DNA from: Acidobacteriota bacterium
Lineage (GTDB): Bacteria > Acidobacteriota > UBA6911 > RPQK01 > JAJDTT01
Assembly: GCA_965263035.1 (NCBI GenBank)
Contig: OZ253580.1
Location: 1 to 64,000 of the forward strand
Direction of reading: 5' to 3'
Length of the DNA: 64,000 nt
Position numbers and translations under genes: made by a program. Numbering within the stretch: position 1 is the stretch's first letter; each line of letters opens with the position of its first letter. Of the stretch, positions 37,528-55,686 are shown in pieces. Under the pieces are notes generated by a model that worked only from the letters and a program-made list of their open reading frames with translations, made no database searches and was not told the origin of the DNA.

Positions 37528-38157
37528 GTGCGCCCGACATGGGCTGTATCTAAGGGATGAAAGATCCCAAGGGAGGTGATGGGACCAACCCTAGCCGAAC
37601 CGCAAGGCGTAGCCGCGAGGTGAAGCTGAAGGAAGCGGAAGGCAAACCCACGACCGCAGGAACACGAACCGGCAGTGAGGCCGGGTGCGGGCGGTGAGCT
37701 GGCGAGCAACAGCGAAACCCGAACCCCATCCAGACGCATCAGGTAGAGCCGGGCGGCCCGGGGGGAAAGATGCAGCACCTTACTCGGGGAGATCTCAAGG
37801 GTGAGAGCCCTTGAGAAGTCAGCAGAGGTCGTAGTAGCGAAGAAGCTGGGTAATGCCGGTGGAGCGAAGGACCGAAGGAGTCGGACTGGCCCTATGGTGG
37901 ACTCGTCAGCGGGATCGCAACTACCTCCGAAAACGGGCCGTGGGGAGGCCCCTCGGACCCGGCATGGAAGGCCCACGGGTGGAGCCCGGCAAGCCGGAAG
38001 GGCGGAGATCAAGTCTCAGCGGCGGCGGAAACCGGAAAGAAAGGCCCTGTACGAGGCTCGAAAGAGCCTCGGGTGACTCCAACCGCCGGATACTGAAAAC
38101 GGTATGTCCGGTGGTGTGGGAGGGTGCAGGGGCGCAATCCCCTGCACTCGACCCGAT
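37528..38157 (+). ncRNA. ORF-less group IIC intron
   Basis: 5' GTGCGCCCG; AGAAGTCAGCAGAGG..GTAGTA; short DV with CGC triad (AACCGCCGGATAC...GTCCGGTGGTGT); DVI hairpin; 3' CCCGAT; no RT ORF. Confidence 0.9.
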
Positions 38158-40927: not shown

Positions 40928-41270
40928 CCAGCAGGGTTCATATGGAGCTTCGCCGATAGAGCAGAGGCCGGACCCTGAGGTGCCGCAGATGAGGGAGTGT
41001 CGGTGTGGATAGATTACATATTGTGCTGTGTCACGTCACCGCTTCTTGTATCCTTTTAACGATGGTATTAGACGGGTTGAACCAATCTCAGCAACGAAGA
41101 TCATTACCCTCTTCTAGACACTAGGTCCAACTGCCATTCGCAGGCCCGCATTATGGAACCCAATGCCCCCACATTCCCATCACGCAGAGTTCGAATCTTG
41201 GGAGTACTCACATCAACCATCGTCATCATCCTTGTATAGATACCACAAAATATCATTAAGGTAAGATTCA

Positions 41271-42442
41271 ATGTCTAGTTACACCTCCAATTTCGCCGTC
41301 CGTCTATTCTACAGTTATAGCCACAAAGACAGTCATTTTCGCGACTCTATGGAAGACTCGCTTTCATTGCTCAAACAACGTGGATTGCTCGATGACTGGT
41401 CAGATGTAAAGATTTTACCCGGAGGAAAGATCTCGAAAACCAACAGGAAGAAGATGGATAACGCTGACATCATGGTGTTTCTTCTCAGCCGGAACTTCAT
41501 TGCTTCGACCGAGTGCATGAAGGAATGGGAGTACGCAAAGCGTCGTACTAATGAAAAAGTGCTCGTCCGCATTCCAATAATTCTATCCGATTGTGCGTGG
41601 CTAGATTTGCTTGGGAGCGACGACATCAAAGCATTGCCGCGAGATGGCAAACCTATCATGCGATTTGCCGATGACGGTGGCGCCTGGCAACAGGTATATG
41701 AGGGCATTAAAGTCGTTGTAGACAACTTACGAACAACTTTCACTCCAAAACAGGAATTCTTGGAGATAATGGAGAAAACCGATTTCTTGTCCGTACAACA
41801 CATTAGACTACAGGACATTTTTATATTTTTAAGATTGTCCTGTTACGCACCTCATGCAAGGGGGGAACATCCACCAAAAGAACAGGTTGACACCATAGAG
41901 GAGCTATTAAAGAATAAATATACGATAGTCCACGGTGACGAGATGAGTGGCAAGACAGCTCTCGGGCGCTTTCTGTTTCTTTCTCTGACAAAGGAGTTGG
42001 AACCTGTTCTGCATATAGATTTGCAACATCTTCCTAGACGTCCCCTTCGAGAAGAAACCTTTCGCCATACATATCACCGGCAGTTTAATGGCGATTATTC
42101 TCTCTGGAAGCGACAGCCTTCAAAAACCCTTATATTGGACAACTTGCAGCCAACTCCTCAATTAGTTAAATTTATTGTACTCTCCAAGGATTATTTCGAT
42201 AAAATAATAGTTACTTTATCGTCTGATATATTCAACTCGTTTTTCAGGGACGAAGAGCGTCTGGCCGAATTCTATGAAATGGAAATTGAACCGCTTACTC
42301 ACCGACAGCAAGAGACGTTGATTAGAAATAGACTCCGATTGTCGGATCGTAGCGAAACAATCACCGACGGCGTCGTCGATCAAATAGAAAACCGAGTGAA
42401 TTCCATAATCATTTCTAACAGGATCGTACCACGGTATCCATT
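41271..42442 (+). pseudogene. TIR-domain P-loop NTPase, 5' half
   Basis: FYSYSHKD...SRNFIASTECMKEW TIR; GDEMSGKT Walker A; ends at the TSD. Confidence 0.88.
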
Positions 42443-42493
42443 GGGGACTACACAGATGTCTAGGCACGCCCAAATGCGCCAAATCAGAGACTA

Positions 42494-42580
42494 TCAATCT
42501 CGCACGAAAGTGCTAGAATAGGAAGAGGGGAGCACAACAACCAAGGGCCACACCATCACAACTGCAAGGCCATCAGTCAT
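42494..42580 (-). CDS. 28-aa hydrophobic peptide (type I toxin-like)
   Basis: MTDGLAVVMVWPLVVVLPSSYSSTFVRD; SD GGAG; paralog adjacent. Confidence 0.45.
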   Translation of the reverse strand: MTDGLAVVMVWPLVVVLPSSYSSTFVRD

Positions 42581-42604
42581 CTTAAGGCTCCCCTGCCCCA
42601 TTGC

Positions 42605-42688
42605 CTACCGAATCAGGTAGAATGGCGGGGAGGGGAGCATAAAAACCAAGGCCGACACTAACACAATTAGATCAGCGGCATCAGTCAT
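42605..42688 (-). CDS. 27-aa hydrophobic peptide (type I toxin-like)
   Basis: MTDAADLIVLVSALVFMLPSPPFYLIR; SD GGAG; TATAAT upstream. Confidence 0.45.
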   Translation of the reverse strand: MTDAADLIVLVSALVFMLPSPPFYLIR

Positions 42689-42766
42689 CTTAAGGCTCCC
42701 CTCCATCATTTCATTATACTGCTTGCCTGTAAGATCAGACCCACGAAAGTGCTAGAATGGGATGGA

Positions 42767-42857
42767 GGCGGGTTGCCCGACTTTGGATGATGGGGCCTGT
42801 TTCAGAAACAGGTTGGTCCTTATGGCCACGGAGGTTCGAGTCCTCCACCCGCCTCCA
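42767..42857 (+). tRNA. Atypical tRNA, anticodon CAG, long variable arm, U73, CCA encoded
   Basis: GGCGGGT/ACCCGCC acceptor; CCTGT-TTCAGAA-ACAGG; GGAGG-TTCGAGT-CCTCC. Confidence 0.8.
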
Positions 42858-42904
42858 TCAGGGTTATTGTACTGCTTGCCTGTAAGATCAGACCCACGAA
42901 AGTG

Positions 42905-43159
42905 CTACAAGCCCTGTCGGTGAGACCTTTCTTTTGGAGTCAATGCCCATTCGACACCTCTCGGTTGATGGACTTTCCCTTGGTCCCTTAACAGTTTGAG
43001 TTGTCCTGTAGTAATTGCATTGAACCCCTGCTCTGGCAAACCGAGCTTTTCAGTAATTGGACTTAACGACAACCCCTCCTCGTATTTCTCCAATAGATTC
43101 AAGATTCCAGCTTGGATCAAGCGTTCTCCCATCTCTGCAAGCATTCTAGCCTCTGCCAT
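42905..43159 (-). CDS. Small winged-HTH-like protein
   Basis: ILNLL...GLSLSPITEKLG...LKLLRDQGKV...WALT; SD AGGAGG. Confidence 0.6.
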   Translation of the reverse strand: MAEARMLAEMGERLIQAGILNLLEKYEEGLSLSPITEKLGLPEQGFNAITTGQLKLLRDQGKVHQPRGVEWALTPKERSHRQGL

Positions 43160-43185
43160 CTGCTTCCTCCTAAGTAAAATACATC

Positions 43186-43485
43186 ATGGAACTAGGATTC
43201 ACACTTCCACCCACCCGACCCCGCCCAAAGATCCCTCTACAGCAAACGTGTAAGAGGTGTGGGCAACCAGACAAGTTCGACTTCCACGTACCAGATCATC
43301 TTTGGAAGTCTATAGTCCCAAAGTCCCATCGGAACCTTGCTATGTGTCTGTATTGCTTCGATGAGGAGGCCGCCGCTAAAGGTATTCCCTACGCGTGGGC
43401 CATCACTGAGTTTTGTTTTGCAGGCCGCGGAGCCACATTTGGCTTCACGGTGTCACGATACGTTGAAAAGAGGCAACTGATCTAG
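43186..43485 (+). CDS. Small CxxC...CxxC protein
   Basis: CKRC and CLYC motifs. Confidence 0.55.
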   Translation: MELGFTLPPTRPRPKIPLQQTCKRCGQPDKFDFHVPDHLWKSIVPKSHRNLAMCLYCFDEEAAAKGIPYAWAITEFCFAGRGATFGFTVSRYVEKRQLI

Positions 43486-43649
43486 TCGTCACAGTCGCCG
43501 TCCTTTTCTTTGGCCTGGCACTGATTGCAAAGTTCCCCGCTGGTCGGCTTCGCGTTCCTGCTAACGTAGTCGTCCGTTGGCCAGTTGGAACAGTTGCGGC
43601 AATAGTGCCACGTATCGCTCGTTCTTCGCTTTCGGTATTGTCTCGCCAT
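43482..43649 (-). CDS. Small zinc-finger-like protein
   Basis: TWHYCRNCSNWP...GELCNQC; SD GGGG. Confidence 0.6.
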   Translation of the reverse strand: MARQYRKRRTSDTWHYCRNCSNWPTDDYVSRNAKPTSGELCNQCQAKEKDGDCDD

Positions 43650-43766
43650 GCTTTTCACCCCCTTTCTGGCTAGTCGTGATCCCATTAAGGAAGGAATCAG
43701 AGGAGCTTGATAAGAGACTTCAAATATAGCTTGAGTGCACGCCCAAATGCGCCAAATCGGATATTC

Positions 43767-43979
43767 TCAATCGTCAATCTGAGAGGCAGCGAACTCCAAG
43801 ACTCGGGCTAGTTCTCGGGCTTGGTTAGTACTCATATATGAGTAAACATTACCGTTTTCAATCCTCAGTTCCAGTGGGTAAGTCTCTTTGCAATCTTCCT
43901 CGTGAGGGTATCGAAGGCGAACTTCCCTGGTGGGGTACGCGCTCAATGTGATCTCAAATTCTTTCTTACTGTCTATCAT
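43767..43979 (-). CDS. Hypothetical protein (preceded by a 36-aa ORF at 43992-44102)
   Basis: Strong SD GAGGAG; 70 aa. Confidence 0.6.
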   Translation of the reverse strand: MIDSKKEFEITLSAYPTREVRLRYPHEEDCKETYPLELRIENGNVYSYMSTNQARELARVLEFAASQIDD

Positions 43980-44548
43980 GGTCCTCTCCTCCTATAGTCC
44001 CAACATTCGAGCAAACTGCTCCTTGGTCATGCCGTCATAAATGCTGCGTTTCGGCCTGAAGAAGTTATTTAGATGTTGCAGTACAATAATGACAATTGCC
44101 ATTGGTTTACATCTCCATAGTTATTTCATTGGCAACGGCCAGGGGGTTTGGGAGTTCTTCCCCCTGGCCACTAACCTTCCTCAGATATCATACCACAGAA
44201 TCAGGAAAAGGGAACGGCGGGGAAGAGCGGAGGAGTCTGACGGCTCCGAAGCGACACACTACGCATCAGATCCGACACCCGGCTTTCCAGTGTGTCACAG
44301 GCTCCCTTGCGTGCGTGAGCAAGTAGGCAAGGAGTTCATCCTCCGCTCCTCTGTCCTCTTATTGTACTCCGTGTGCAATACGTGGAGGATTTAGGAGGCG
44401 GCGCGGCTCCAACATGGAGCAAAGGGTTTTGTGTAGCCAGTTCAGTTAGGCAAAAACGCGCCGCCCTGGTAAATGCCTACCATGATATTCGATGGAGTGC
44501 AACCTGTGATCTGGATTTCTTGTCACAGGTGGTCTACGATGCGGTGGA

Positions 44549-44652
44549 GGAGGGGTGGCAGAATTGGCATTGCACTCGAATTTAAACTCGTAGGTCAGTA
44601 GGCGTTGCACCACAGCGCACCTGTACGGGTTCAAATCCCGTCCCCTCCTCCA
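44549..44652 (+). tRNA. Degenerate tRNA-like gene; very long variable arm, irregular anticodon arm (loop around TTTAAA)
   Basis: GGAGGGG/CCCCTCC-TCCA acceptor; ACGGG-TTCAAAT-CCCGT T-arm; D-loop TGG. Confidence 0.6.
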
Positions 44653-44662
44653 TTGTGATGTC

Positions 44663-44751
44663 GGGAGCGTGGCCGAGTTGGATTATGGCGCCCGGCTGAA
44701 AACCGGGTGGGTGTAACAGCCCCGCAGGTTCGACACCTGCCGCTCCCGCCA
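44663..44751 (+). tRNA. Atypical tRNA: Ser-like body with GAA (Phe) anticodon
   Basis: GGGAGCG/CGCTCCC-GCCA; CCCGG-CTGAAAA-CCGGG; long variable arm; G73. Confidence 0.85.
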
Positions 44752-44773
44752 TCAATTCATAATACTCGGAGCA

Positions 44774-45223
44774 TCAAAAAAGCCTTTGACTTCGTTGGAG
44801 CAGGCCATCGAGTCTTCCTTTCGGAAGTTTTCCAACAGATTCCCAAATCGTCTCTCCAAAAACCGCCTCATACGATCCTGATTCGATGAACTCAGTAGCG
44901 TTTAGCGAGAGGATGACCCCAACACAGTCCGCCAGTATCAGTGCGGCCAGCGCCTCACGTCGGACCATCCCTCCAAAACCATTACGGGCACCAAAATCAA
45001 TTAGGACTAGTCGATACCCTTTAAGTTCAGGAGAGCTAGACGCGATCGTTTTTATTACTGTAGTGCTGTACACCTCCAGGCTGTTAGGGTCTGTCAACTT
45101 CTGTTGAATCTGCTCGTTTAGACCCGGAACACTGCCGTCTGAACTCATGCAATTAGACCCACTCGACGGCGTACAATTGGCGGTCAGAAGCACAAGAAGC
45201 AAAACGGTGCAGGAGTTTTCCAT
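44774..45223 (-). CDS. Putative lipoprotein
   Basis: LLLVLLTANC lipobox-like; FGARNGFGGMVR motif. Confidence 0.6.
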   Translation of the reverse strand: MENSCTVLLLVLLTANCTPSSGSNCMSSDGSVPGLNEQIQQKLTDPNSLEVYSTTVIKTIASSSPELKGYRLVLIDFGARNGFGGMVRREALAALILADCVGVILSLNATEFIESGSYEAVFGETIWESVGKLPKGRLDGLLQRSQRLF

Positions 45224-45254
45224 AACTCAATCTTTAATTAGAATAGATGTAGAC

Positions 45255-45345
45255 GGCGGGTTGCCCGACTTTTGGATGATGGGGCCTGTTTCAGAAACAG
45301 GTTGGTCCTTGTGGCCACGGAGGTTCGAGTCCTCCACCCGCCGCC
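45255..45345 (+). tRNA. Atypical tRNA, anticodon CAG, long variable arm, G73
   Basis: Near-identical to 42767-42857 except the discriminator; TAGAAT upstream. Confidence 0.8.
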
Positions 45346-45477
45346 CTTGCAATGAAGGAGGATGAGAACCGAAACCGTGCCTTCCCTAACTTCACACTGC
45401 CGACTAGAGCAGCTTAAAAGAAGGCGAGTAACGAACCGAAAAGCTCATCCTCCTCCATCAATTTATAATACTTTGAC

Positions 45478-46755
45478 CTAAAGTCCTGGCACAGAACTGC
45501 ACTTCGATGGAACGATCACAGGATCATCCGATTCCTCAGACTCTCGGTACCTAATAGACCCTCTTTGCGACCAGGGGAGGTTAGGCACATCGGGCAGTTC
45601 AATCTCTGTTCTAGTACCGCCTACGAATCCCTTATCTGGCACCAGTACCCATTCACCACGCCTGTACCAGATGTGAGATCGTGCCCAGACCCGCGAGTAC
45701 CTAATATCGATCGGATCATCTTCGGACATACGTCGGTGGAAAGCGCCGATGTTTGGATTAGGTTTAGAGCTACTAGAAAAGGAACTCGTCCAACTCAGCT
45801 TTCCAGAGAAATTCAACCTGGCCGTAGCGACACATCGACCTGGTCTTTCTTCAAATACCTGGTGGATCTGGTATCCTTGTGCAGTATCAGGCAACTCATA
45901 TCCGCCATCAGAGGTACGGGTTCTACCACCTCCTGCAGGAACCACTGACATCCCATTCTCCAGAGCAGGAGGGATCCCTTGGTAGTCAGCACGTGCTGCC
46001 TTCCCATAGATGCCTTCTATTGTGGTGTCAAAAGCTCCCTTTTCCCGTATTACAATGTCTCTCCAGTCACCAGGGGGACAGTCACCTTCCGTCACGTCTG
46101 GAGGGCCTTCATACAATCGCTCCCACTGTGCTTCATGCCACCGGGCGTTTCCATACTCCGGAGCAAAAGACTCAACTACCATCAAGGTGTAATCGAGCCC
46201 TGTCCCTGACTCTGGGTCGTCCACTTTGACAAGCCAACGCTTGAACTCATCTACAACTCGCCGATTCATGTCGGAGTAGCTTTTGACTCCGACAATGTGC
46301 CCACGGAAGTACTCGGTCCCAGAGAACGAATCAGAGAGAACACGTATACATTCCTCTGTCTTGAGGACTTCATGGGCATCTTGAATGGGCGCTTCGGTGA
46401 GCTCCACTGATTCGCACTCGAGTTCGTCTTTGAATCTAAAGGAGTCTGTTGGGTCCTTGTCTCCATAGATGAGTACAAGAGGGTCGGGAAGAGGAACGAC
46501 CATTGCAGCAAAGAACTTCCCTGACTCGTACTCTGTGACTCTCCACTCATAGATGTGACCACAATGGATCGCATCAAAAAATTCTAGGTTGATGATCTGA
46601 CCGTCGTGGGGAGGCTCTGAAAGACTCACCTCAACGCGACAATCTGGACAGGCGTTAGGGATAAATCCGTATGGAGTGTCGAATCCCCACTTCTCCTCGG
46701 CTTGTACATTCGCCAGGAATGCAGCAAAGGCCATTAGCACAATTACTTTTCTCAT
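45478..46755 (-). CDS. Secreted hypothetical protein
   Basis: MRKVIVLMAFAAFLANVQA signal peptide; SD AGGAGG. Confidence 0.75.
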   Translation of the reverse strand: MRKVIVLMAFAAFLANVQAEEKWGFDTPYGFIPNACPDCRVEVSLSEPPHDGQIINLEFFDAIHCGHIYEWRVTEYESGKFFAAMVVPLPDPLVLIYGDKDPTDSFRFKDELECESVELTEAPIQDAHEVLKTEECIRVLSDSFSGTEYFRGHIVGVKSYSDMNRRVVDEFKRWLVKVDDPESGTGLDYTLMVVESFAPEYGNARWHEAQWERLYEGPPDVTEGDCPPGDWRDIVIREKGAFDTTIEGIYGKAARADYQGIPPALENGMSVVPAGGGRTRTSDGGYELPDTAQGYQIHQVFEERPGRCVATARLNFSGKLSWTSSFSSSSKPNPNIGAFHRRMSEDDPIDIRYSRVWARSHIWYRRGEWVLVPDKGFVGGTRTEIELPDVPNLPWSQRGSIRYRESEESDDPVIVPSKCSSVPGL

Positions 46756-46783
46756 AGCGTACCTCCTTACTCTGTATTCAGAT

Positions 46784-47128
46784 TCAGAATCCCAATGCCT
46801 TGCGGGCGAACTTCTGGATCTGTTTCCACATAATGACCTGATCGAAGTGATGGTCAACGCCGTAATGGTCAGTGTGCGTTATACCATCCTTCAAAATCTC
46901 GCCTGCAATGGGGAGCACGGAGTCGGGAGTCCACCGAGTCAGAACGTCCGAAGGATCGTCCGTCCGGCACAGGTACATCTGTGCTGTAATAACGATCATG
47001 TAGTCGCCTGTGTCGGACGGAATCACGAACAGTGCGTTTGGAGGAGTCTCCACCTCCGTGTTCCAAGGGTGTCCCACACCAAACGCGACGGATAGAATTG
47101 TGATAGCGATTAGCAATGTGTTTCTCAT
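46784..47128 (-). CDS. Secreted hypothetical protein
   Basis: Signal peptide; SD AGGAGG; TATAAT upstream. Confidence 0.65.
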   Translation of the reverse strand: MRNTLLIAITILSVAFGVGHPWNTEVETPPNALFVIPSDTGDYMIVITAQMYLCRTDDPSDVLTRWTPDSVLPIAGEILKDGITHTDHYGVDHHFDQVIMWKQIQKFARKALGF

Positions 47129-47991
47129 AATGCCTCCTTCTCGTACCTTGTGTACGACTTGTTGATTTATGACATCGGTGACCGACGCATTTAGTACACT
47201 ATTATATCACATTATAATAGATGCACAAAGCAAGACGACCAAGGAATTAAGGAAGTATTCGGAAGGGGCGGGACAATAACAAACCGCCCCTTCGAACATC
47301 GCTCCGGGGTCGGGTGAAAGTAGTAAAGCCCTCCCCCATGTGGGAGCGATTACCGGGGTGGCCGAATCAAAGCTACACCTTCATCGTCGTACTGTCCGAC
47401 CCAATTATCGTGGGACAGACGATGTCGGGCGTGCGATCTCAACTGTGCCCGAGTTGCCGGGAGGAGCAGACCCATGAGGCGCGTCTGATCCTGAGCGAGG
47501 GGCAACAACGCTTCCCAGGTAATGCCTCCTGGCGCAGTCATCAAGTGATCGAGGTATCCGGCGTAGGTGCTGAAATTGCGGGGCATCGCGGGTCCCTCCT
47601 GGGGGAGGGTCCCGTATCAGAGGCGTAGCAAGCTGACAACGTATCGGGTAAACTGTCTGACAGGCTGACTTTCCTCCAACACAGGACCAGTTGGCTCAGA
47701 GTCCGTTGGGTGCTGATATCACCTGACGGACTCACCTTTTCAGAGTACTCGGCCTAGCTACAAGGAGCACTCGTTCCCTTGTAAGGGAGCCGGGTCTGAG
47801 TGCTCATCGAACAGCGATGCTGATGGAAGAGTTGCTTATTCACCCGGCGCGGTTCATGAGGCCACGCTTTACCAGGTTGTTTTATTCAGCAAGAGACCCG
47901 ACACAAGCGAATCACTGCCGAGAGCACTGAGGCGGGATTGTGCCGGATAAATAATTGGTAGTCAATAGAAGGGAGAAAATTATCTCAACTC

Positions 47992-48219
47992 TCAGCGGAG
48001 GGTGTCCACCACGGCATTCCGTACCGATTCCATCCAGGTCTCAATCTCCCGCTGGTGTTGGACCAGGGCCTTTACCTTGTCGTCCACAATCCGCAGCCGT
48101 CGGATAATGAGCAGGTGAGAGACGATGATGAGGAATAGGACCAGGAGCAAGGCGAAGGCGTACCAGTGTTGATCGACGATGGGAGGGATTCGGGAGAGTA
48201 ATGAGTTGAGCTGTTCCAT
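47992..48219 (-). CDS. Small single-TM protein
   Basis: FALLLVLFLIIVSHLLII followed by a coiled segment. Confidence 0.55.
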   Translation of the reverse strand: MEQLNSLLSRIPPIVDQHWYAFALLLVLFLIIVSHLLIIRRLRIVDDKVKALVQHQREIETWMESVRNAVVDTLR

Positions 48220-48272
48220 GCTTCAATCTTCCTGCTTTGCCGAAGTATAATACATACATGGCGGAGGGTTGA

Positions 48273-48348
48273 TGGACGCAGCGGGCTTCGGACCCGCGTC
48301 TCCCGGTTTTCAGCCGGGTGTGTTATCCGGGATAAACACTATGCGCCC
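48273..48348 (-). tRNA. Atypical tRNA: G3:U70/A73 (Ala identity) with GAA (Phe) anticodon
   Basis: GGGCGCA/TGCGTCC-A; GTGT/ACAC D-stem; CCCGG-CTGAAAA-CCGGG; GCGGG-TCCGAAG-CCCGC; no encoded CCA. Confidence 0.75.
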
Positions 48349-48475
48349 TCGGTTTGCTTTTCCCTCCGCCATTCTAAACATCTTGCCAAGGTCAGGGGTC
48401 TTTGGTATTTTGGCCTCTCTCGCGCATGATTGTAGGCAATCAATATTATGTGTTATCATGTGTTCTTCAATGATG

Positions 48476-48551
48476 TGGAGCCGGTGCCAGGAATCGAACC
48501 TGGACACGAGGACTTGCTGGGCCCCGGCGTTTGCCATTCCGCCACACCGGC
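48476..48551 (-). tRNA. Atypical tRNA, anticodon AGC, C3-G70, U73, CCA encoded
   Basis: GCCGGTG/CACCGGC-TCCA; GGGGC-CCAGCAA-GTCCT; CCAGG-TTCGATT-CCTGG. Confidence 0.75.
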
Positions 48552-48575
48552 TCCCTTCATTATAGACCGTCAGAG

Positions 48576-48651
48576 GGGAGCCGGTGCCAGGAATTGAACC
48601 TGGAAACAAGGAATTGCGAGTCCCCGACCTTGGCCACTCAGTCACACCGGC
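48576..48651 (-). tRNA. Atypical tRNA, anticodon CGC, C3-G70, U73
   Basis: Same body; GGGGA-CTCGCAA-TTCCT. Confidence 0.75.
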
Positions 48652-48675
48652 TCCCTTCATTATAGACCGTCAGAA

Positions 48676-48751
48676 GGGAGCCGGTGCCAGGAATCGAACC
48701 TGGAAACAAGGAATTGCCACTCCCCGACCTTGGCCACTCGGCCACACCGGC
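48676..48751 (-). tRNA. Atypical tRNA, anticodon GGC, C3-G70, U73
   Basis: Same body; GGGGA-GTGGCAA-TTCCT. Confidence 0.75.
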
Positions 48752-48871
48752 TCCCTTCATTTTAGCACAGGGGGACTATCGTGAAAAAACGACCTCGCAA
48801 GCCCGTGGACATCCTAGCCCTGGCAATGCGCCGGGCTTATGAGCAAACTAGGGGCGGAGAAGCCGAATCCC

Positions 48872-49843
48872 TCAATGAAGATCGTCCGCCTTGTCGGAAA
48901 CCAGATCGAGATACAGCAGACGACGACCGACCATCCCCGCCACGATGTGCTTCATCTGGTCAATAGTATCCAGTTCCCGGATGTTGTGACGCTTGACAAA
49001 CTCGTTGACGTAGCGGTGCAGGTGCTTCACGCTCAAGCTGTGGAACGTCCCCATGTAGCCCCGCTTCAACATCGACCAGAAGGATTCGATGCCATTTGTG
49101 TGTACTATGCCGTCAACGTACTGTTGAGCGCTGTGTCTCACAGACTTGCGATTTGAGCCCATCCAGGCGTAAGCCTGATTCTCGTCCGTGTACGACTTCA
49201 CTCCGAAAGTGGAGCTGTCCAAAATGAACCGGGCAAGAGTCTCCTTTGTCGTGTCCGGCACCACCCTGGCCCTGATTTGATTCGTAGGCCGGTCCTTCAT
49301 GCCTACCACTGCGGTCTTGCCTGAGGGTCCACGACCGGAAAACATCGCCCGTCGCTTCTTGCTCATGTTCCTCCGCTTGCCTCCCATATAAGTCTCGTCG
49401 ATTTCCACGGGACCGATCAGAGCTTCCAAATCGTCCTTGTCCAAGGACTCGCGGAGTCGGTGCAACATGAACCACGCCGTATTCTGCGTCACGTCGATGT
49501 CTCGATGGAGTTTCATCGAGGAGACTCCCTTGAGGTTCGTGACGTAGATGAAAATGGCGTAGGCCCATTTTCGGAGCGGAACCTTGGATCTTGTCAAGGC
49601 CGTGCCAGTGCGGACGCTGAAATACCTACGGCAGTCCGAACACCAGTACGGCTGCGGATATCGGTTTGGCGTCTCATTCGTCTTGACGCTGCCGCAATGA
49701 CCACAGCACCGTTCCTCGGGCCAGAGAACATCCTCAAACCATTTCGTCGCGGCTTCCTCCGTGGGGAACATCTCCGCGAGTTGGATCATTGAGATCCCTT
49801 GTCGGTAGAACTTTCCGGGGGCTTTCCCCTTGCACTTGTCCAT
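48872..49843 (-). CDS. IS1595-family (ISXO2-like) transposase
   Basis: Zn ribbon CGHC/CSDC; VEIDETYMGG, YTDE, HTNGIESFWS. Confidence 0.95.
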   Translation of the reverse strand: MDKCKGKAPGKFYRQGISMIQLAEMFPTEEAATKWFEDVLWPEERCCGHCGSVKTNETPNRYPQPYWCSDCRRYFSVRTGTALTRSKVPLRKWAYAIFIYVTNLKGVSSMKLHRDIDVTQNTAWFMLHRLRESLDKDDLEALIGPVEIDETYMGGKRRNMSKKRRAMFSGRGPSGKTAVVGMKDRPTNQIRARVVPDTTKETLARFILDSSTFGVKSYTDENQAYAWMGSNRKSVRHSAQQYVDGIVHTNGIESFWSMLKRGYMGTFHSLSVKHLHRYVNEFVKRHNIRELDTIDQMKHIVAGMVGRRLLYLDLVSDKADDLH

Positions 49844-50152
49844 GGTGGGCCTTTCGTGGTAGGATTCTCGGGACGCGGCTGAACCGAGGAACCCACGGCC
49901 TGGCAACCTCCGTTTGTAAGTGAGAGACCAGAGCGCAGGACCTGCTTCGAAACCGCGTCCAATTCAATTATATCACACCTTTATAGATGGTGTTTTTATC
50001 AGCCTTACTCTCCTTTAATTCCCTGTAATTATGCCATCGGACCCTGACATTTTTCTGTCATAAATCCTTTGTTTAGTTTAAGGTTACGAAGATTTAATTG
50101 ACCTTTTGTGTGATTGTGTGGTAAAATTATTGGGTTAATGTGAACAGGAGGC

Positions 50153-50332
50153 ATGATGACTAAGAAGGAACTCAACGGATTCACAGAGGCAGTTCGAACG
50201 GTTGTCCGAGAGGAATTAAAGCCGATTGAGCAGCGTCTCGACAAACGCCTTGACGACTTGAAGAAGGAAATCCCTGGTCTAGTTGCGGACGTGATCGCAC
50301 AACGATTTCCAACCCTGTTCCCACACTCATAG
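50153..50332 (+). CDS. Small coiled-coil protein
   Basis: MMTKKELNGFTEAVRTVVREELKP...; SD AGGAGG; paralog of 50427. Confidence 0.6.
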   Translation: MMTKKELNGFTEAVRTVVREELKPIEQRLDKRLDDLKKEIPGLVADVIAQRFPTLFPHS

Positions 50333-50426
50333 GCTGCCAGATCAATTAGGAGGAAGGTTACGAAGATTTAATTGACCTTTTGTGTGATTGTGTGGTAAAA
50401 TTATTGGGTTAATGTGAACAGGAGGC

Positions 50427-50705
50427 ATGATGACTAAGGAAGAACTCAACGGTTATGTCAACGCCGTCAGGCTCGTGGTCCAGGAGGAACTTGAGCCCGT
50501 CAAATCTCAGATTACAACCCTGACTCTTCGAATGGGAGATGTGGAACTGAGGTTGGGAGAGGTTGAAGCCAGAATGGGCACGTTGGAGTCTCGCATGGGA
50601 ACGGTCGAGGCCAGAATGGGGACATTGACTCAGAGAATGGGTGATGTTGAGACTAAGGTAGGGGCGTTGACTCAGAGAATGGGTGATGTTGAAGCCAAAT
50701 TGTAG
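50427..50705 (+). CDS. Small heptad-repeat coiled-coil protein
   Basis: (A/S/Q)RMG(T/D)(V/L)E heptads; duplicated 85-bp promoter/RBS block. Confidence 0.65.
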   Translation: MMTKEELNGYVNAVRLVVQEELEPVKSQITTLTLRMGDVELRLGEVEARMGTLESRMGTVEARMGTLTQRMGDVETKVGALTQRMGDVEAKL

Positions 50706-51073
50706 GATGGGGTGATGGAGGAGAACGACTAGACGTAGTTGTAGGGGTAGGTGACTACTGCCCCTCCGGGGGGAGCGATGGAGTTAGTCAAACTACCACT
50801 CCCTCTGTCCCCTCCATCATTTAATTATACTCCCCACGAAAGTGTAGAATGGGATGATGGAGGAGGGAAACCAATCCTGCCGTCCCATGTATTAACACCA
50901 CAATCGGCAGGGCTACCGTTGAGGCACACCCCAAGGCGGTAGGCTGCTCAGCGATAGTGTGTCTTCCACTGGGTCCAGCCATCGCCCTCCTCCATCATGT
51001 GATTGTACTCCCCACGAATGTAAGGCCCAGTTCAATGACCCTGGAGGCGTGCCTAGACATCTGTGTAAGCCCC

Positions 51074-52387
51074 TATCCATTCTACGTACTCTCAATACTC
51101 CAAACCTACGAGGCCTTTATGCCTAGTGAGCTCTCTATTACTTCCTACGGTCACTGTTACTATGTCCTTATTATTGCCAACTTAGTTAAGGCAGGCATAC
51201 CTCGTAGCGACGATCAACTAAATACATGTTTTTACTTTGCAGAACGCTTAGCATTTGAAATTTATCGGATTGCAAGGAAATCCAACTCGGGGTCGTTGGA
51301 TTTTGACAAGTTTGTGGCGGACTACAGAAATCAATATATAATTTCGCGATCGGTCCTGAGTAGGTTGATGCATCCCGATTTTGGAATCATCAATACAGAA
51401 GGTCAATTCAAAACAGCGTACATGTACTACTTCTTTCTGGGCAGGTTCCTCTCGAAGAACCGCAGCACACACATATCCATAATTGAGAATATGTGTGAAA
51501 ATAGCCACGTGACTTCGAACCACCTGACGCTTCTTTTCGTTATTCATCATACTGATGATAGACAAATAATTGATGACATATTGCTTAGGACAATGTGCAC
51601 ACTGGACACTGTGCAACCCGCGGTTCTAGATCGAACGGAAACTCGGAGATTCAAGGATATCATTGCCGGGCTCCCCACAAATATACTCTCCAATGATAGT
51701 GTGGTGAAGGAAAGGAAAAGACAGAGGGATGGTCGCGACTTGACCGAGAAGCAAGACGGGTACGATGGTGATACGGATGGCATCGATCAACAAAGCCTGG
51801 TTAACGACATTTACAAAATCTTTAAAAATAACGAGATTATGGGGCAAATTCTACGAACCAAATACGGAACGTTAAAAAAAGAGACGATTGTGGAAATCAT
51901 CGAGACGATTGCGGACAGTGGGCTACGCCTTGTCAACTTTGTCCTCAAGGATGAAAAGGAAATAGCCGATACCGCCCACTACCTTCATGCGAAATATCCG
52001 AAGGATGATATAAAGAAGATAAAAAACTATCTTCAATTCTTTTCTTTTTTCTGGACGATAGTAAATGTTGAAAAAGTTGCTAGAGCCATAAATGTTCCAG
52101 AGATTATTGAAACGGTCGATTCAGTCGTTACGCGGAAGGGGTCGCCGGCGTACGATCTTATTGGATACTTCAGCCTGCTCGACAGTTCTCCGGAAATCTC
52201 AAGGAAAGTTAATAAACGACTAGGATACCTATTGAACACTCACAAGGACCTGTTTGTTAAGTGGGTGTTGTCAATTAGAACGCAATACTATATGAATACC
52301 CACGATAGTGGGGCATCGATGGAGCAATCGGTCTGTTCGTTGTTAGATATCAAGTATTCCTCAGCCCATCGTTCCTTACGACGGTAA
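51074..52387 (+). pseudogene. TIR-domain NTPase, 3' half
   Basis: Removing the transposon and one TSD gives in-frame NRIVPRYP|FYVLSILQ; 825 aa in total. Confidence 0.88.
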
Positions 52388-52599
52388 GTGGTAGAGTCAT
52401 ACGCGCGTAAAGAAGAGAACTGTCCCCCTTCTCCCGGTAGTGCAACTCTTGGAACTGCCTAAATGGCTCCCTGCTCGCCAACAACGGCTGCCGGGCTACC
52501 TCCATCGCCTTTTTGATTCGGGCTTCAGCCGGTGCTTCCTCGCCGGCTCGAGTACGTATTTGTCGTGTTCCTCCTCCCACCACACCATTGACTCGTCAT

Positions 52600-54337
52600 C
52601 CCAGATTATTCATGGAACATGTTGATAAGAGCTTCCAACCCGGCGTTTTCGTGCGATCGGAGCCCGGTTTCTCTTGAACCTCTGTCGATTCGACTGAATC
52701 GGCTCGAAAACAGGACGATTGAACCAGTCATTAACCGTTTACCGGCCAGGGGGACCGTCACCCGCCGACAGGTTGACTTTCCGGTGAGAAATCCCCACCG
52801 TTTCGGTCCCTTCCACGGGCCCGTTTTCTCCTCCGTCCACTATCCCGGCGCCCAGGACACCCGCGCCAGTCTCTGCCACAACCGCTTCCAGTCCGTCGCC
52901 CCTTGACTGATGACGAAAATCAATCGCCTCCCCTGACGCAGCGCCCGACTCGCCACTCGCAACACCCGCTCGCGAAAACGACGCAGACTCCAGCCCCGAC
53001 GCGTCGCCTGCTCCATCAGCACCCGACCCAGGTGCAGGATCTCGTACCCCAGCAGATTCAGCAGGAACCGGACTTCGTTGTGGGGTCGAACGCCGGCCTC
53101 CGTCCTCGCTTCCGGCTTGGCTTCCGACTTCAGCGGTTGGCCCCGATAGTGCGTCTTGGGCCGGCTCGCGGAGGACAAGGCCGGATCGAGCACGTCCATG
53201 AACTCCCCCATGTGGCCTTCCGCCTTCCCCCGCTTTCGATACTGTGCCAGCAACTCCTGAGCCTCGTATCGTTTCCGGCTCAGGCTCGTCAGCAACCAGA
53301 AATGATCCGGATACAACTCCCCCGGTCGCTCCCGCACCACCAGCACCACCCGGAGCGTCAACTTCAGCGCCTTTTTCCCCAGGTAGCTGGCTCCCGGAAA
53401 AATCTCCCCGTCGATCAGGTCCCCCGTCTCGGCACAACTCGCCACCAACCCGTGGTACATCCGCTGGCGATAGTATCCGTTCCATTCGCTTCCCGGGGGA
53501 TGCCCATGGACCTCGACCGGGAGACCGTCCACGTCCAGGTACATCGTCTTTTTCCGTCTCTTCTTCCGTGGGGTCTTTTTCCCCCGTTTTCGCCGCTGGC
53601 CTTCGATCATCTCGATCCGACGGCACGCCAGCTCCGTCACCGCCTGGTGCAGGACCGGAAGGTTCTCCTCCCGGCTGAGCGTGTCCAGCAGTCGGGACAA
53701 GGTCGGCTGCGACGCCAGCCCCTGGCCCTCCTCCAAGGCCGCCGTGCCCCGACGAGTCCGGCTCGCCACCCGCAAGCTCGGATCCTGACGCAGGCGGTCG
53801 GCGTCGGACTGGTCGCGCCAGCCCTGACCCAGCAGCAGGAGTCGAGTCCGCAGCAGATCCGACAGCGGATAGCGGATCGAACTCGGGTGTCGCGGATCGT
53901 GCAACCGCCCGGTCAACCAGTCGATGAGGCCGCTGCGATCCATCAGCTCCCGCTGCACCAGGGCTCCCGTGTCCGCACTGAGCAACTCGGGGCGGGTCTC
54001 GAGGCGGAGGGATCGGTTGAATGAGGGCCGGATCTGCGGTATCGTCTCAGGCATGGCGTGCTCCGTTCTTTGTGGTTGTTTCTTAGCACTATAATCATAC
54101 CACAAATGACGGGCACGCCGTCTCTTTATGCCGCCCTTGGAGGGGACGAAAACCGTGGAAATGCTTGGGTTTCGGCCCCCCTTGAATCCTGGGGTTAAAC
54201 CGACGTTGAAAACAAATATAGCGTTTCACCCAGGTCGGATCCCATCCGTTTTCTGTGGGTATCCGGTAACCCTCTGATCCGACTCGACATGACGGGCACG
54301 CTTGCTCATTTTATGTTTGCGTGATGAATAATCTGGG
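52600..54337 (-). mobile_element. IS1380-family element; transposase 52840-54054, possibly internally deleted
   Basis: Perfect TIR CCCAGATTATTCA; LSADTG, LASQPTLSR, LDVDG, YRKRGKAE. Confidence 0.85.
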
Positions 54338-54342
54338 ATTAA

Positions 54343-55686
54343 GGGGATTATCTACCAAACTATACAAATCCCCTATCACTTCGGCTTCTTATGGACACGA
54401 ATAGACGGGTCCGGTCGCTTGGCGTTGGCGAACATCCTACGGGCAACTTCCTCCGGTGTGGCATCCAATTTGATGATGCGGGTGACAGGGCGTCCACCTT
54501 TGTTCTTAGGTTTGGGTTTCTTCGCCATTCTCACGTTTCCCGAATGGACATATATCTCCGCTTTTTATTCTCTTTTCGCAAACCGATCAGTGTGTAGACG
54601 TTGGACTTGAGCCGGTTACACGGACCGCATCAATGGGCTGTGGACGGTTACTAGGCTCACGCAATCAAATCCCGGTAGTGTAGGAGCTTCCTGTCCATTC
54701 TCCGGACTATGAAGCCCATCTGTGTGTCCATTTCCCGGATGTTCTGTCTTCCAGCGAACTCCCGAACGTATTTGTGAGTGGGCTTGGACGAGAAGTGATG
54801 GAACGTCCCAACGTATCCCGGCTTGAGCATGCTCCACAGGGACTCGATGCCATTGGTATGAACTTGGCCCTTCACTTACTCTTGGGCGCTATGATTGACC
54901 GAATCGTGGGAGTATTCCTTCAGGCCGATGTAGGCGGGCGAGTCATCCGTGTAGACTTCCGACTCCGGGACCACAGTCTCACGTACGAACTTTACGAACT
55001 TCAGGAGGGTCTTTCCCTTGGGGTTCGGGACCACCTTGGGCGCCACCCGCTTGGTCTGCCGGTCTTTTATCCCGACGACAGCCGTCTTTCCCACGGCCCC
55101 ACGTCCTTCCATCTGGGCTCTCTTGGCCTTTGGCATGTTCTTCCGCTTCCCGCCCATGTAGTTTTCGTCCACTTCGACTGGACCCGGCATAACTGTTGGA
55201 TCACCGAAGAACTCCTCACGGATTCTCTGCATGAGATACCAGGCCGTCTTCTGCGTGATTCCCAGCCCCCTGTGGAGCTTCATCGAAGAGGTGCCCTTCA
55301 GTCCCGTAGTCATCATGTAGATGGCGAGGGCTCACTTCTGGAGGCCGATCTTGCTGGACTGCATGACCATGCCCTTGCGGACGCTGAAGTAACGTCGACA
55401 ATCCCGGCAGTGGTAAGGCATGGGTTTCCGGGACTTCACGGCCTTCGTATTGACTGAGCCGCAATCTGGGCAACATCTCTCGTTGCCCCAACGCTGCTCT
55501 TCAAACCACTTCTCGGCGGCCGTATCGTCGGGAAACATCCGAAGCAACTGGATGATGGTCAACCCTTCTCTATGGGCCTTTCCGGGGGCTTTCTTCGCTG
55601 TTCTCTTTGTTCCTTTCATGTGTAGTATTCGACCAGAATCCACTGACACTTTTCAACGGATTAGTGTAGTATGGTATATAATCTCC
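54343..55686 (-). mobile_element. Second IS1595-family element, frameshifted transposase, essentially no cargo
   Basis: TIRs GGGGATTATCTACCAAACTA / GGAGATTATATACCATACTA; ATTAA remnant of TSD; fragments 55332-55619, 54876-55316, 54657-54875 (VEVDE, YTDD, HTNGIES). Confidence 0.85.

Follow-up and report, generated by a model that had tools for sequence, protein, structure and literature searches.

A Delimited IS1595-Family Transposon Carrying tRNA Genes Whose Bodies and Anticodons Disagree

Positions 42443-51073 of the stretch analysed here (the window: 64,000 nt, positions 1 to 64,000 of contig OZ253580.1 of an Acidobacteriota bacterium, assembly GCA_965263035.1) form an 8,631-bp transposon of the IS1595 family of insertion sequences (IS), the cargo of which, about 7.6 kb, includes eight tRNA genes, here T1 to T8. 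That this is a transposon with a cargo of mismatched tRNAs is near certain; none of the seven readable tRNAs fits its anticodon, and related elements in other genomes carry irregular tRNAs of their own. The best reading of these sequences, which we hold tentatively and at slightly less than an even chance, is that the genes encode mobile missense tRNAs which would be charged according to their bodies.

The element is exactly bounded. Its 28-bp terminal inverted repeats (42443-42470, compared with the reverse complement of 51046-51073) are identical at 26 of 28 positions, a repeat search pairs both ends as an inverted repeat of 31 nt at 90%, and an 8-bp target-site duplication, TATCCATT, lies directly outside both ends (42435-42442 and 51074-51081). 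Deletion in silico of the element and one TATCCATT copy yields an empty site with one open frame of 825 amino acids (aa; 41271-52387), and the restoration of this frame marks a true insertion, by which the element split a candidate defence gene of TIR/PDC-S60 type. The transposase matches the Pfam profile DDE_Tnp_IS1595 (PF12762) over positions 2-153 of 153, with an expectation value (E) of 1.8e-34; D149, D220, and E253, assigned by eye as the DDE triad, are invariant in a three-way transposase alignment, and Zn_ribbon_IS1595 (PF12760) scores 23.3 bits, under its 25.4-bit cut-off, with the Cys pairs kept in relatives. Plasmid relatives of the transposase are annotated 'IS1595 family transposase', at 42% identity or less among the matches listed (all 453 are below 60%). 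The element thus combines the features by which the IS1595 family is recognized, namely an ISXO2-like DDE domain, terminal inverted repeats and an 8-bp target-site duplication; it shares the DDE_Tnp_IS1595 transposase and both kinds of boundary sequence with other IS1595-family IS, and differs from those with passenger genes in its 7.6-kb load, which consists mainly of tRNA and tRNA-shaped RNA genes. An earlier reading made from the sequence alone (hereafter the sequence-only reading) had proposed exact ends, one intact transposase, membership of IS1595 and a large cargo, all of which are borne out by the inverted repeats, the TATCCATT duplication, the 825-aa frame and the Pfam match.

A permissive scan with the Rfam tRNA model RF00005 (gathering score 29) returned eight matches in the element at 39.4-52.9 bits; the default Rfam scan recovers six of the eight, ARAGORN also calls six, and the union of the two is eight. 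Neither ARAGORN nor Rfam called a tRNA in the 64-kb window outside the element, and, for scale, about 51 ordinary tRNA genes serve the 6.2-Mb host genome. All eight genes fit a 7/5 cloverleaf model (positions 1-71, 7-bp acceptor and 5-bp T stem), and Rfam confirms the eight cloverleaves with the anticodons and discriminator bases first noted for them; for T2, the Rfam alignment flags non-standard pairs. Identity elements of Ser or Ala tRNAs stand on non-cognate anticodons in T3 and T4 (long arm with G73) and in T5 (G3:U70 and A73 with GAA). T6-T8 are 100-nt tandem units with the acceptor GCCGGUG/CACCGGC and therein C3:G70 and no G:U pair, such that G3:U70, the hallmark of tRNA-Ala, is absent from three tRNAs with Ala anticodons.

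Isotypes were assigned through three proxies that rest on the reference tRNAs of one genome, and are a rough measure. In global alignments to canonical host tRNAs, T3 was nearest to Ser, T1 and T4 to Ser and Tyr, and T7 and T8 to Cys; the cognate isotype ranked 4th to 37th, and among the five nearest host tRNAs, tRNA-Ala was missing for T6-T8, tRNA-Phe for T3 and T5, and Leu(CAG) for T1 and T4. The second proxy was a covariance model, R1, built from six tRNAs that combine U73 with an NGC anticodon, three from the window and three from the related locus L078. In the host its best non-member match was tRNA-Cys (68.9 bits), followed by Phe and Gly(UCC) at 57.9 bits, and none of the three host tRNA-Ala was among the 14 R1 matches (150 of approximately 2,458 first-look candidates were scored); over 88 other sources the top outsider was again tRNA-Cys (62.4 bits). 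The likeness of T6-T8 to tRNA-Cys extends to U73 in all six family members, but the anticodon is NGC with GCA at positions 35-37, and Gly and Phe tRNAs score only about 11 bits lower. The third proxy, which took in all 22 readable tRNAs of six elements, found the nearest reference tRNA to be of the anticodon's isotype in 1/22 element tRNAs, vs. 29/38 host tRNAs under leave-one-out comparison. This points to a large contrast between body and anticodon despite the one-genome reference, on what is a rough measure, and upholds the view that the tRNAs are mismatched in identity.

Arrays of tRNA genes are common on mobile elements, and the element resembles those of phages, plasmids and integrative elements in having clustered tRNA genes on mobile DNA with a G+C content unlike that of the host (51.8% in a 62.1% genome). 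The cargo might on these grounds be ordinary, correctly charged tRNAs of a foreign lineage, which, like phage and plasmid arrays, would add to the tRNAs available to mobile DNA of lower G+C, an explanation we consider highly improbable. Such arrays hold cognate tRNAs that match the codon usage of the element or replace cleaved host tRNAs, whereas the bodies of the element tRNAs are at odds with their anticodons, which serve the codons most used by the host (CUG makes up 41% of its Leu codons, UUC 77% of Phe, and GCC with GCG 77% of Ala). The host already encodes tRNAs with CAG, GAA, GGC, and CGC anticodons, and the codons enriched in the open reading frames (ORFs) of the element, GCA, UUG, CUA, UCU, UCA, and UGU, are not those served; codon supplementation was thus ruled out by codon usage. 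Moreover, the element tRNAs break identity rules that hold across bacteria: NGC anticodons occur where G3:U70 is missing, Ser anticodons occur on bodies with a short arm, and Leu anticodons occur on bodies that have a short arm or lack A73. The T5-T8 array had no DNA match among 50,697 phage records. Recoding of the element's own genes was likewise considered and rejected, as CUG, UUY, and GCN align mainly with Leu, Phe, and Ala in homologues of the transposase and of a 425-aa cargo protein; in the transposase homologue columns, 67% are L at CUG, 61% F at UUY and 43% A at GCN, with Ser/Ala/Cys never leading as replacements.

The mismatch is not peculiar to this element. An alignment-based scan of the transposase clade identified 342 relatives, the best 80 of which were fetched as loci; ARAGORN called tRNAs in 11 of these and none in 69. 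In five of the 11 (L011, L034, L036, L038, and L078), from Acidobacteriota and Alpha- and Gammaproteobacteria assemblies, irregular tRNAs lie inside or beside the element, and each of the other six has one tRNA or two, ordinary in type and length, at a distance of 0.7-4.8 kb from the transposase. On this count most of the clade appears to lack tRNAs, and those members that have them appear to carry mismatched ones. Inverted ends and 8-bp duplications enclose the irregular tRNAs in four other elements (L001, the same element as L011; L009, the same as L034; L036; and L038). The end pattern of the window element matched only L011 of the 80 loci; the ends of four other elements were then located by an inverted-repeat search, which found none for L078. 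Several instances thus bear out the expectation that related IS1595 elements in other genomes would also carry irregular tRNAs.

The closest of these, L001 (Acidobacteriota assembly; approximately 4.8 kb, duplication ATTCAATT), has a transposase 78% identical to that of the window element, matching ends, and three tRNA-like genes: a long-arm tRNA that combines anticodon GAA with A73, a homologue of T5 which has a 36-nt insert in the anticodon loop and C3-U70 in place of G3:U70, and an irregular tRNA directly after the transposase. It also encodes homologues of the 425-aa protein and of a 78-aa protein (the latter with 35% identity, E 3e-14). In the same assembly, L009 (7.5 kb, duplication TTCCGATT) has a series of features directly downstream of its transposase: two bodies strongly like Leu (alignment scores 103 and 92), which combine A73 with the Ser anticodon AGA, an Arg-like body with anticodon GCC, and a homologue of the 425-aa protein. 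L036, from a Rhodobacteraceae assembly (2.6 kb, duplication CAAAAATA), carries a U73 body with anticodon UGA and an Arg-like body of short-arm type with anticodon GCU, and L038 (3.7 kb, duplication AAACGAAT) has five tRNAs, including GCU on an Arg-like body and ACG on a body with G3:U70 and A73. Beside the transposase of the alphaproteobacterial L078 are at least seven tRNA-like genes, three of which belong to the U73/NGC family and others of which are C1:G72, A73 short-arm bodies with Leu anticodons; at 3345-5010 (-) of this locus are repeated pairs, in which a U73 family member is followed 8 nt later by a C1:G72/A73 short-arm tRNA, with a repeated CCAGCCGACTGAATATAGGGGTTC motif after each pair. 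The element family is rare, occurring in 1/151 and 1/401 genomes sampled in the phylum, and a protein-family scan of metagenome contigs gave no further copy.

Comparison of homologous tRNAs bears on whether these genes are maintained. Among the six U73/NGC copies, both partners have changed in 11 of 21 pairs. The share of paired cells is 90.3%, and drops to 34-52% if partners are displaced by 1-3 columns; no shuffle of 500 reaches the observed values. The D stem aligns poorly in the L078 rows, which brings this helix down to 50% paired. G35, C36, A37, A38, and U73 are invariant, and position 34 alone of the anticodon varies (A, C, or G). Between T3 and its L001 homologue, 6 of 24 pairs are compensatory at 97.9% pairing, a result reached by 7 of 500 shuffles, and the two share an identical anticodon loop, CUGAAAA, while differing in the discriminator (G73 vs. 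A73). Covariation around fixed anticodon loops argues against random decay and for a function in which the anticodon loop is read; that the loops are conserved while the stems co-vary suggests that something reads them. Random decay in homologous elements had been named as one outcome that would undo the proposal, and compensatory changes were found instead; agreement of isotype with anticodon had been named as another, and the isotype proxies show disagreement. Hitch-hiking tRNA pseudogenes in decay, without function, are consequently a very unlikely explanation, already disfavoured by the covariation and near-full pairing. In its favor are the broken anticodon arms of T2 and of the T5 homologue in L001, a non-tRNA unit (A1) that folds no better than its shuffles, the moderate Rfam scores (39-53 bits) and the rarity of the element family; conversely, the anticodon loops show no variation between elements of different phyla, the mismatch is systematic, not random, and mismatched sets recur in at least five other loci.

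The tRNAs are so constructed that the portion recognized by synthetases and the portion recognized by the ribosome disagree. As mobile missense tRNAs, they would be transcribed individually and fold into L-shaped molecules; T3 and T4 would be charged by seryl-tRNA synthetase (SerRS) on account of the long arm and G73, and T5 by alanyl-tRNA synthetase (AlaRS) on account of G3:U70 and A73, whereas T6-T8 would be taken by an enzyme that reads U73, most likely the cysteinyl enzyme (CysRS) and possibly the glycyl enzyme (GlyRS). Abundant host codons, namely CUG, UUY, and GCU/GCC/GCG, would then be decoded at low level with the wrong amino acid, making the transposon a mobile source of codon-specific missense translation. 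T2 and the RNAs that have closing stems without a T loop cannot decode, and may be either degenerate copies or molecules with another role.

Several observations weigh against missense decoding. An anticodon arm is absent from T2, and the T5 homologue in L001 has both its 36-nt loop insert and C3-U70; with broken anticodon arms, this part of the battery cannot act in decoding. Helices formed between leader and trailer (below) might impede cleavage by RNase P and deprive the molecule of a free 3' end; T6 carries C33, and the T loop of T5 carries C55. For T6-T8, charging is the weakest step, as CysRS ordinarily recognizes the anticodon GCA and GlyRS recognizes C35. The isotype assignments are proxies from one reference genome, and the ordinary decoding of the element's own genes implies that nothing in the element requires the tRNAs. 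Precedent is also mixed, as some irregular tRNAs were charged yet unused in translation and others were uncharged in an earlier survey (Mukai et al., 2017; PMC5389517). The missense reading is unproven; it is most open to doubt on account of the leader-trailer helices, of the broken members, and of how the U73/NGC family would be charged.

A wider, joint reading, possible but doubtful, is that an IS1595 clade present in at least three bacterial classes carries missense tRNAs as selected cargo which exploits the blind spots of synthetases. Bodies of Ser, Ala, and Leu type would take any anticodon; Arg-like bodies would be altered only at wobble position 34, giving GCU, which reads the Ser codons AGY; and in Cys-like U73 bodies GCA would be shifted to positions 35-37, such that the ribosome reads NGC and hence Ala codons. 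The clade would then constitute a horizontally mobile device for codon-specific diversification of the proteome, with the tRNAs perhaps freed from closed leader-trailer helices only under certain conditions.

These helices set the element tRNAs apart. Leader and trailer pair over at least 6 contiguous bp, at no more than 6 nt from the acceptor end, in 11/27 element tRNAs vs. 0/51 host tRNAs. In T1 the leader GGA pairs with U73-C75, which extends the acceptor to a 10-bp helix (10 + 5) that folds with its flanks at a z-score (z) of -3.45; T5 lies inside an 8-bp outer stem (48261-48372, fold z -3.35) that is beyond the offset limit of this count, and the outer stem of its L001 homologue is 10 bp. 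At 9150-9620 of L038, three tRNA-like genes each sit in a leader-trailer helix of their own, with longest contiguous runs of 5, 7, and 14 bp; as the outer-helix sequences differ yet stay complementary, the outer helix itself appears to co-vary.

Closed helices of this kind are also what might be expected of anticodon-specific tRNA mimics that do not decode, and that serve as decoys or sponges for anticodon nucleases, modifying enzymes or synthetases, or act uncharged in the ribosomal A site as stress triggers, to the benefit of the element or the host. We regard this alternative as rather doubtful, though several observations fit it: anticodon loops are conserved while stems co-vary, the leader-trailer helices (11/27 vs. 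0/51) and the several units without a usable anticodon arm are unlike normal tRNA maturation, the element lies within a defence-type gene, and some irregular tRNAs of Mukai et al. (2017; PMC5389517) were charged but unused, or toxic. Conversely, library scans recognized no nuclease, toxin or defence family among the cargo proteins, and related elements are inserted in unrelated genes. A nuclease decoy should moreover copy the body of the host tRNA too, and bodies are mismatched in 21/22 cases, while the three tandem copies T6-T8 differ exactly at wobble position 34, a pattern expected for codon coverage.

Structured RNAs in addition to tRNAs had been noticed in the sequence-only reading, rightly as to their presence; the correction is that they comprise at least six units (A1, A2, D1, C1, B1, and B2), each closed by a terminal stem of 9-14 bp and without a T loop. 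Five of the six fold better than shuffled sequences (z -2.6 to -4.5), the exception being A1, and a search for other Rfam families gave only chance-level rows for them (E >= 0.11). The closing stems are rich in GGAGG/CCUCC. Two motifs are concentrated in the element: of 9 exact occurrences of CCTCCATCA in the window, 7 lie within it, and ATTRTACT occurs 8 times in the window where 0.82 are expected, again with 7 inside, a count of 8 being reached by 0/100 shuffles. ATTRTACT sites follow several units on their 3' side (42713, 42866, 44361, 50824, and 51002 on the + strand; 44080 and 48244 on the - strand), and on the opposite strand the motif reads as a -10-like TAYAAT that points back into the RNA gene, making antisense transcription from these sites possible. 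A -10-like hexamer also lies 7-22 nt upstream of six of the eight window tRNAs, and a two-hexamer promoter scan gave 13 sites vs. 7.4 ± 2.7 expected; promoters as a special feature were nonetheless rejected, as TAnAAT 4-24 nt upstream is not distinctive (11/27 element vs. 14/51 host tRNAs).

The closing stem and 3' motif common to all units (ATTRTACT and CCTCCATCA being enriched) raise the question of whether these RNAs act in cis, as signals for processing or stability, for example at the 3' end of the transposase mRNA, or as RNAs needed for transposition. The first tRNA lies approximately 100-180 nt after the transposase stop codon on the same strand in the window element, L001, L009, and L036, and within 1.8 kb in L038, and the smallest element, the 2.6-kb L036, is a transposase with two tRNAs and little else. 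Even so, cis action is unlikely: ARAGORN found no tRNA in 69 of the best 80 relative loci, which implies that transposition can do without tRNAs; in the window, six of the eight tRNAs come with a -10-like hexamer of their own, and four are on the strand opposite the transposase. A processing signal, moreover, needs neither a conserved anticodon nor an A/C/G series at the wobble position.

Natural code-breaking tRNAs are, to our knowledge, known from only a few cases, namely CUG-clade yeasts, tRNA-ProX and allo-tRNAs, and their spread is poorly understood. The cargo is nearest to the irregular tRNAs reported by Mukai et al. (2017, Nucleic Acids Research; PMC5389517), the findings of which are restated in a 2020 review; our comparisons with these works and with the tRNA-ProX papers below extend to the retrieved portions of each. 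Mukai et al. describe allo-tRNAs with 8/4 or 9/3 branches (a 12-bp acceptor branch), an allo-tRNA pseudogene that overlaps a transposon-related ORF, and, in Acidobacteria, irregular tRNAs arranged as polycistrons in the vicinity of toxin-antitoxin genes; natural tRNAs of Ser or Ala identity with foreign anticodons insert Ser or Ala in Escherichia coli, and HisRS charges tRNAs with a GGU anticodon, possibly via GUG at positions 35-37, which go unused in translation. Like the allo- and irregular tRNAs, which are largely from Acidobacteria, those of the element join identity elements (the long arm of Ser, G3:U70 of Ala, or U73) to unrelated sense anticodons; both sets are clustered, those of 2017 next to mobile-element genes, and include some members with broken stems or extra loops. 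The 2017 clusters also adjoin toxin-antitoxin genes, and some of their members are charged by anticodon-blind synthetases.

There are equally clear differences. Unlike allo-tRNAs, the window tRNAs are 7/5 rather than 8/4 or 9/3, and draw their extra pairs from leader and trailer; they are carried by an IS1595 transposon that inverted ends and a target duplication delimit, and the same kind of cargo is also present in Alpha- and Gammaproteobacteria assemblies. Unlike the 2017 polycistrons, the element has no toxin-antitoxin pair recognized by Pfam, NCBIfam, or PADLOC. A second comparison is with tRNA-ProX (tRNA-ProA/-ProT/-ProN) which, with its synthetase ProRSx, effects programmed missense translation in Streptomyces and Kitasatospora through an AGC anticodon, which reads Ala codons although the tRNA lacks Ala identity, and A33 (PMC10404621; PMC11415595); natural mistranslating tRNAs often lack U33 (PMC11415595). 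T6 similarly has AGC and a base other than U at position 33 (C33). However, tRNA-ProX has C1:G72, A33, A34, and an adjoining synthetase gene, proSx, whereas T6 has G1:C72, C33, and U73, and T6-T8 as a group have G1:C72, U73, and C33 or U33, in an element with no synthetase; as far as their retrieved text extends, PMC10404621 and PMC11415595 mention neither a transposon nor a mobile genetic element; the word 'mobile' appears once, in PMC11415595, within a cited title that names Mycoplasma mobile. The element tRNAs are thus neither allo-tRNAs in the strict sense, being 7/5, nor tRNA-ProX, and would work like those missense tRNAs if they work at all.

Our literature searches on IS1595 passengers and on transposon-encoded or irregular tRNAs returned no account of an IS that carries tRNAs. 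To say that nothing of the kind was known is nevertheless an overstatement, given the allo-tRNA pseudogene over a transposon-related ORF and the irregular-tRNA polycistrons in PMC5389517. Irregular tRNAs near transposon-related genes were known before, having been reported in 2017 (PMC5389517); the defined vehicle, its recurrence across bacterial classes and the conserved Cys-like NGC family are new.

With a fully delimited vehicle, which has exact ends and a dated insertion, and at least five related loci from three bacterial classes, the vague association of 2017 becomes amenable to experiment. At its size the element lends itself to cloning, comparison of the loci reveals where selection acts, and definite substitutions are predicted (Ser at CUG, Ser or Ala at UUY, Cys or Gly at GCN, and Arg at AGY). 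Active tRNAs would make mistranslation a trait open to horizontal transfer; were they inactive, their conserved anticodon loops would point to a new class of tRNA-shaped regulators or decoys. In either case the scaffolds, comprising the U73/NGC family and the leader-trailer helix design, may interest those who build orthogonal tRNAs.

The cargo had been described as mostly RNA-based, which is fair by gene number but passes over approximately 11 ORFs, including a secreted-looking 425-aa protein also encoded in two related elements (Table 1). That protein belongs to a family with 14 members, itself included, among 5.8 billion proteins, none with a Pfam domain, and the family occurs in 1/401 genomes sampled in the phylum. 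It had no match in Pfam, NCBIfam, or PADLOC; its structure model, a confident one (predicted local distance difference test, pLDDT, 79.5), gave no Foldseek match in the PDB at E 0.001 or better, a best Z of 4.7 without a recognizable fold in VIA-align wide, and no usable match in Atlas. A word-based search with the 78-aa protein returned only itself. Two coiled-coil ORFs follow 98%-identical 99-nt leaders with promoter-like sites at 50098 and 50372, and the second contains 42-nt tandem repeats that encode an RMG-x-x-E heptad-like unit; the pair also shows a sub-threshold DUF7310 match. At a threshold of E 0.01, Pfam (11 ORFs), NCBIfam (10) and PADLOC (8) linked no cargo ORF to a family of toxins, antitoxins or defence proteins; the sole rows in these scans were low-score coiled-coil matches for one ORF, and the ThsB/PDC-S60 match is to the interrupted target gene only. 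The role in addiction, dormancy or phage resistance suggested by the sequence-only reading therefore finds no support among the cargo proteins covered by these libraries. Pfam and further library scans recognized no synthetase domain in any cargo ORF, and the host has one CysRS.

Table 1. Positions in the 64,000-nt window of the transposon, its cargo and the interrupted gene.
Feature	Position	Strand	Evidence
Left target-site duplication copy, TATCCATT	42435-42442		Flank sequence
Left terminal inverted repeat, 28 bp	42443-42470	+	26/28 vs. right end
Right terminal inverted repeat	51046-51073	-	End comparison, repeat search
Right target-site duplication copy, TATCCATT	51074-51081		Flank sequence
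Interrupted target gene, N-terminal part (TIR domain, ThsB-like, PDC-S60 start)	41271-42442	+	Pfam TIR_2 2.2e-12; PADLOC ThsB 1.9e-29
Interrupted target gene, C-terminal part (PDC-S60 positions 438-889 of 906)	51082-52387	+	PADLOC 2.3e-24
IS1595-family DDE transposase, 344 aa from TTG (323 aa from ATG at 49843)	48872-49906	-	Pfam; 78% identity to L001 transposase
T1: anticodon CAG, long variable arm, U73, encoded CCA	42767-42854	+	Rfam 44.4 bits; ARAGORN
T2: acceptor, D and T arms intact, U73, CCA; no foldable anticodon arm	44549-44649	+	Rfam 39.4 bits
T3: anticodon GAA, long variable arm, G73, encoded CCA	44663-44748	+	Rfam 52.9 bits
T4: anticodon CAG, long arm, G73, then CCC; 97% identical copy of T1	45255-45343	+	Rfam 42.9 bits
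T5: anticodon GAA, G3:U70, A73, T loop UCCGAAG	48273-48348	-	Rfam 50.6 bits
T6: anticodon AGC, C33, U73, encoded CCA	48479-48551	-	Rfam 50.9 bits; model R1 90 bits
T7: anticodon CGC, U73	48579-48651	-	Rfam 52.7 bits
T8: anticodon GGC, U73	48679-48751	-	Rfam 51.9 bits
A1: closing stem GAGGGGAGC/GCUCCCCU; TAGAAT 6 nt upstream; repeat shared with A2	42525-42602	+	z -0.7
A2: 10-bp closing stem, 3' end CCUCCAUCA	42629-42710	+	z -4.5; 0/200 shuffles as good
D1: closing stem GAGCGGAGGA/UCCUCCGCUC, then ATTGTACT	44222-44358	+	z -2.6
C1: closing stem GGAGGAUGAG/CUCAUCCUCC, 3' end CCUCCAUCA	45352-45464	+	z -3.8
B1: 12-bp closing stem and three hairpins, four-way junction	50706-50822	+	z -4.4; 0/200 shuffles
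B2: 14-bp closing stem and three hairpins, four-way junction	50851-50999	+	z -4.0; 0/200 shuffles
ORF, 84 aa, no family match	42905-43159	-	
ORF, 99 aa, sub-threshold DUF6300 (17.5 bits, cut-off 27.8)	43186-43485	+	Pfam
ORF, 67 aa, Cys-rich, no family match	43482-43685	-	
ORF, 70 aa, no family match	43767-43979	-	
ORF, 149 aa, lipoprotein-like N-terminus (by eye), no family match	44774-45223	-	
ORF, 425 aa from ATG (459 aa from upstream TTG), signal-peptide-like N-terminus (by eye), beta-rich	45478-46755	-	
ORF, 114 aa, signal-peptide-like N-terminus (by eye), no family match	46784-47128	-	
ORF, 78 aa, kept in L001 element (35% identity, E 3e-14)	47350-47586	-	
ORF, 75 aa, hydrophobic stretch, no family match	47992-48219	-	
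Two small coiled-coil ORFs: 50153-50332 (59 aa), 50427-50705 (92 aa)	50080-50705	+	Repeat search

The element is single-copy in its 6.198-Mb host genome, where a genome-wide comparison found no second match for the rest of the 8.6-kb cargo; some 16 further IS1595 copies in the host have transposases about 50% identical to that of the element. One of these transposases (52% protein identity) lies in the window itself at 54660-55592 (-), with no tRNA called near it there. Contigs from three studies have the element at the same site, with no differences across long pieces. An apparent empty site, deduced from a low-depth joint that skips 41540-52269, was not accepted, having only 31 letters on its shorter side. 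A degenerate consensus of the ends, used in search of more copies, had no match in metagenome contigs, and in genome contigs gave only both ends of L001. The interrupted TIR/PDC-S60 gene (window 41000-53000) is itself low in G+C, at 44-47% vs. 62% in the genome, from which the landing site of the transposon looks like an already foreign defence island.

Within the element, a partial copy (89% over 36 nt) of the left-end subterminal sequence lies at 43737-43772 (+), 1.27 kb inside; A1, A2, T1, and three small ORFs, which make up the leftmost module, may be a later addition to an older, shorter element. Approximately 4.5 kb upstream of the element, at 37609-37872, are Rfam matches to domains D1-D4 of a group II intron (85.5 and 43.6 bits). 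Elsewhere in the host genome, four extra tRNA-Leu(UAA) genes with an unusual C1:G72 occur in a repeat family (host contig C1, 2101850, 2914932, 5348837, and 5672126), the copies of which are up to 99% identical over 1.5 kb and one of which adjoins an ORF with a DUF772 transposase domain (L091); with this family, the genome has a second instance of tRNA genes that travel on repeats. Odd ARAGORN calls of 'tRNA-Phe' and 'tRNA-Ser(GGA)' on the same contig (2512570-2514053 and 2543035-2543107) contain a repeated hairpin, CGGCGGUUGGAAACCGCCG, and look like repeat hairpins rather than tRNAs.

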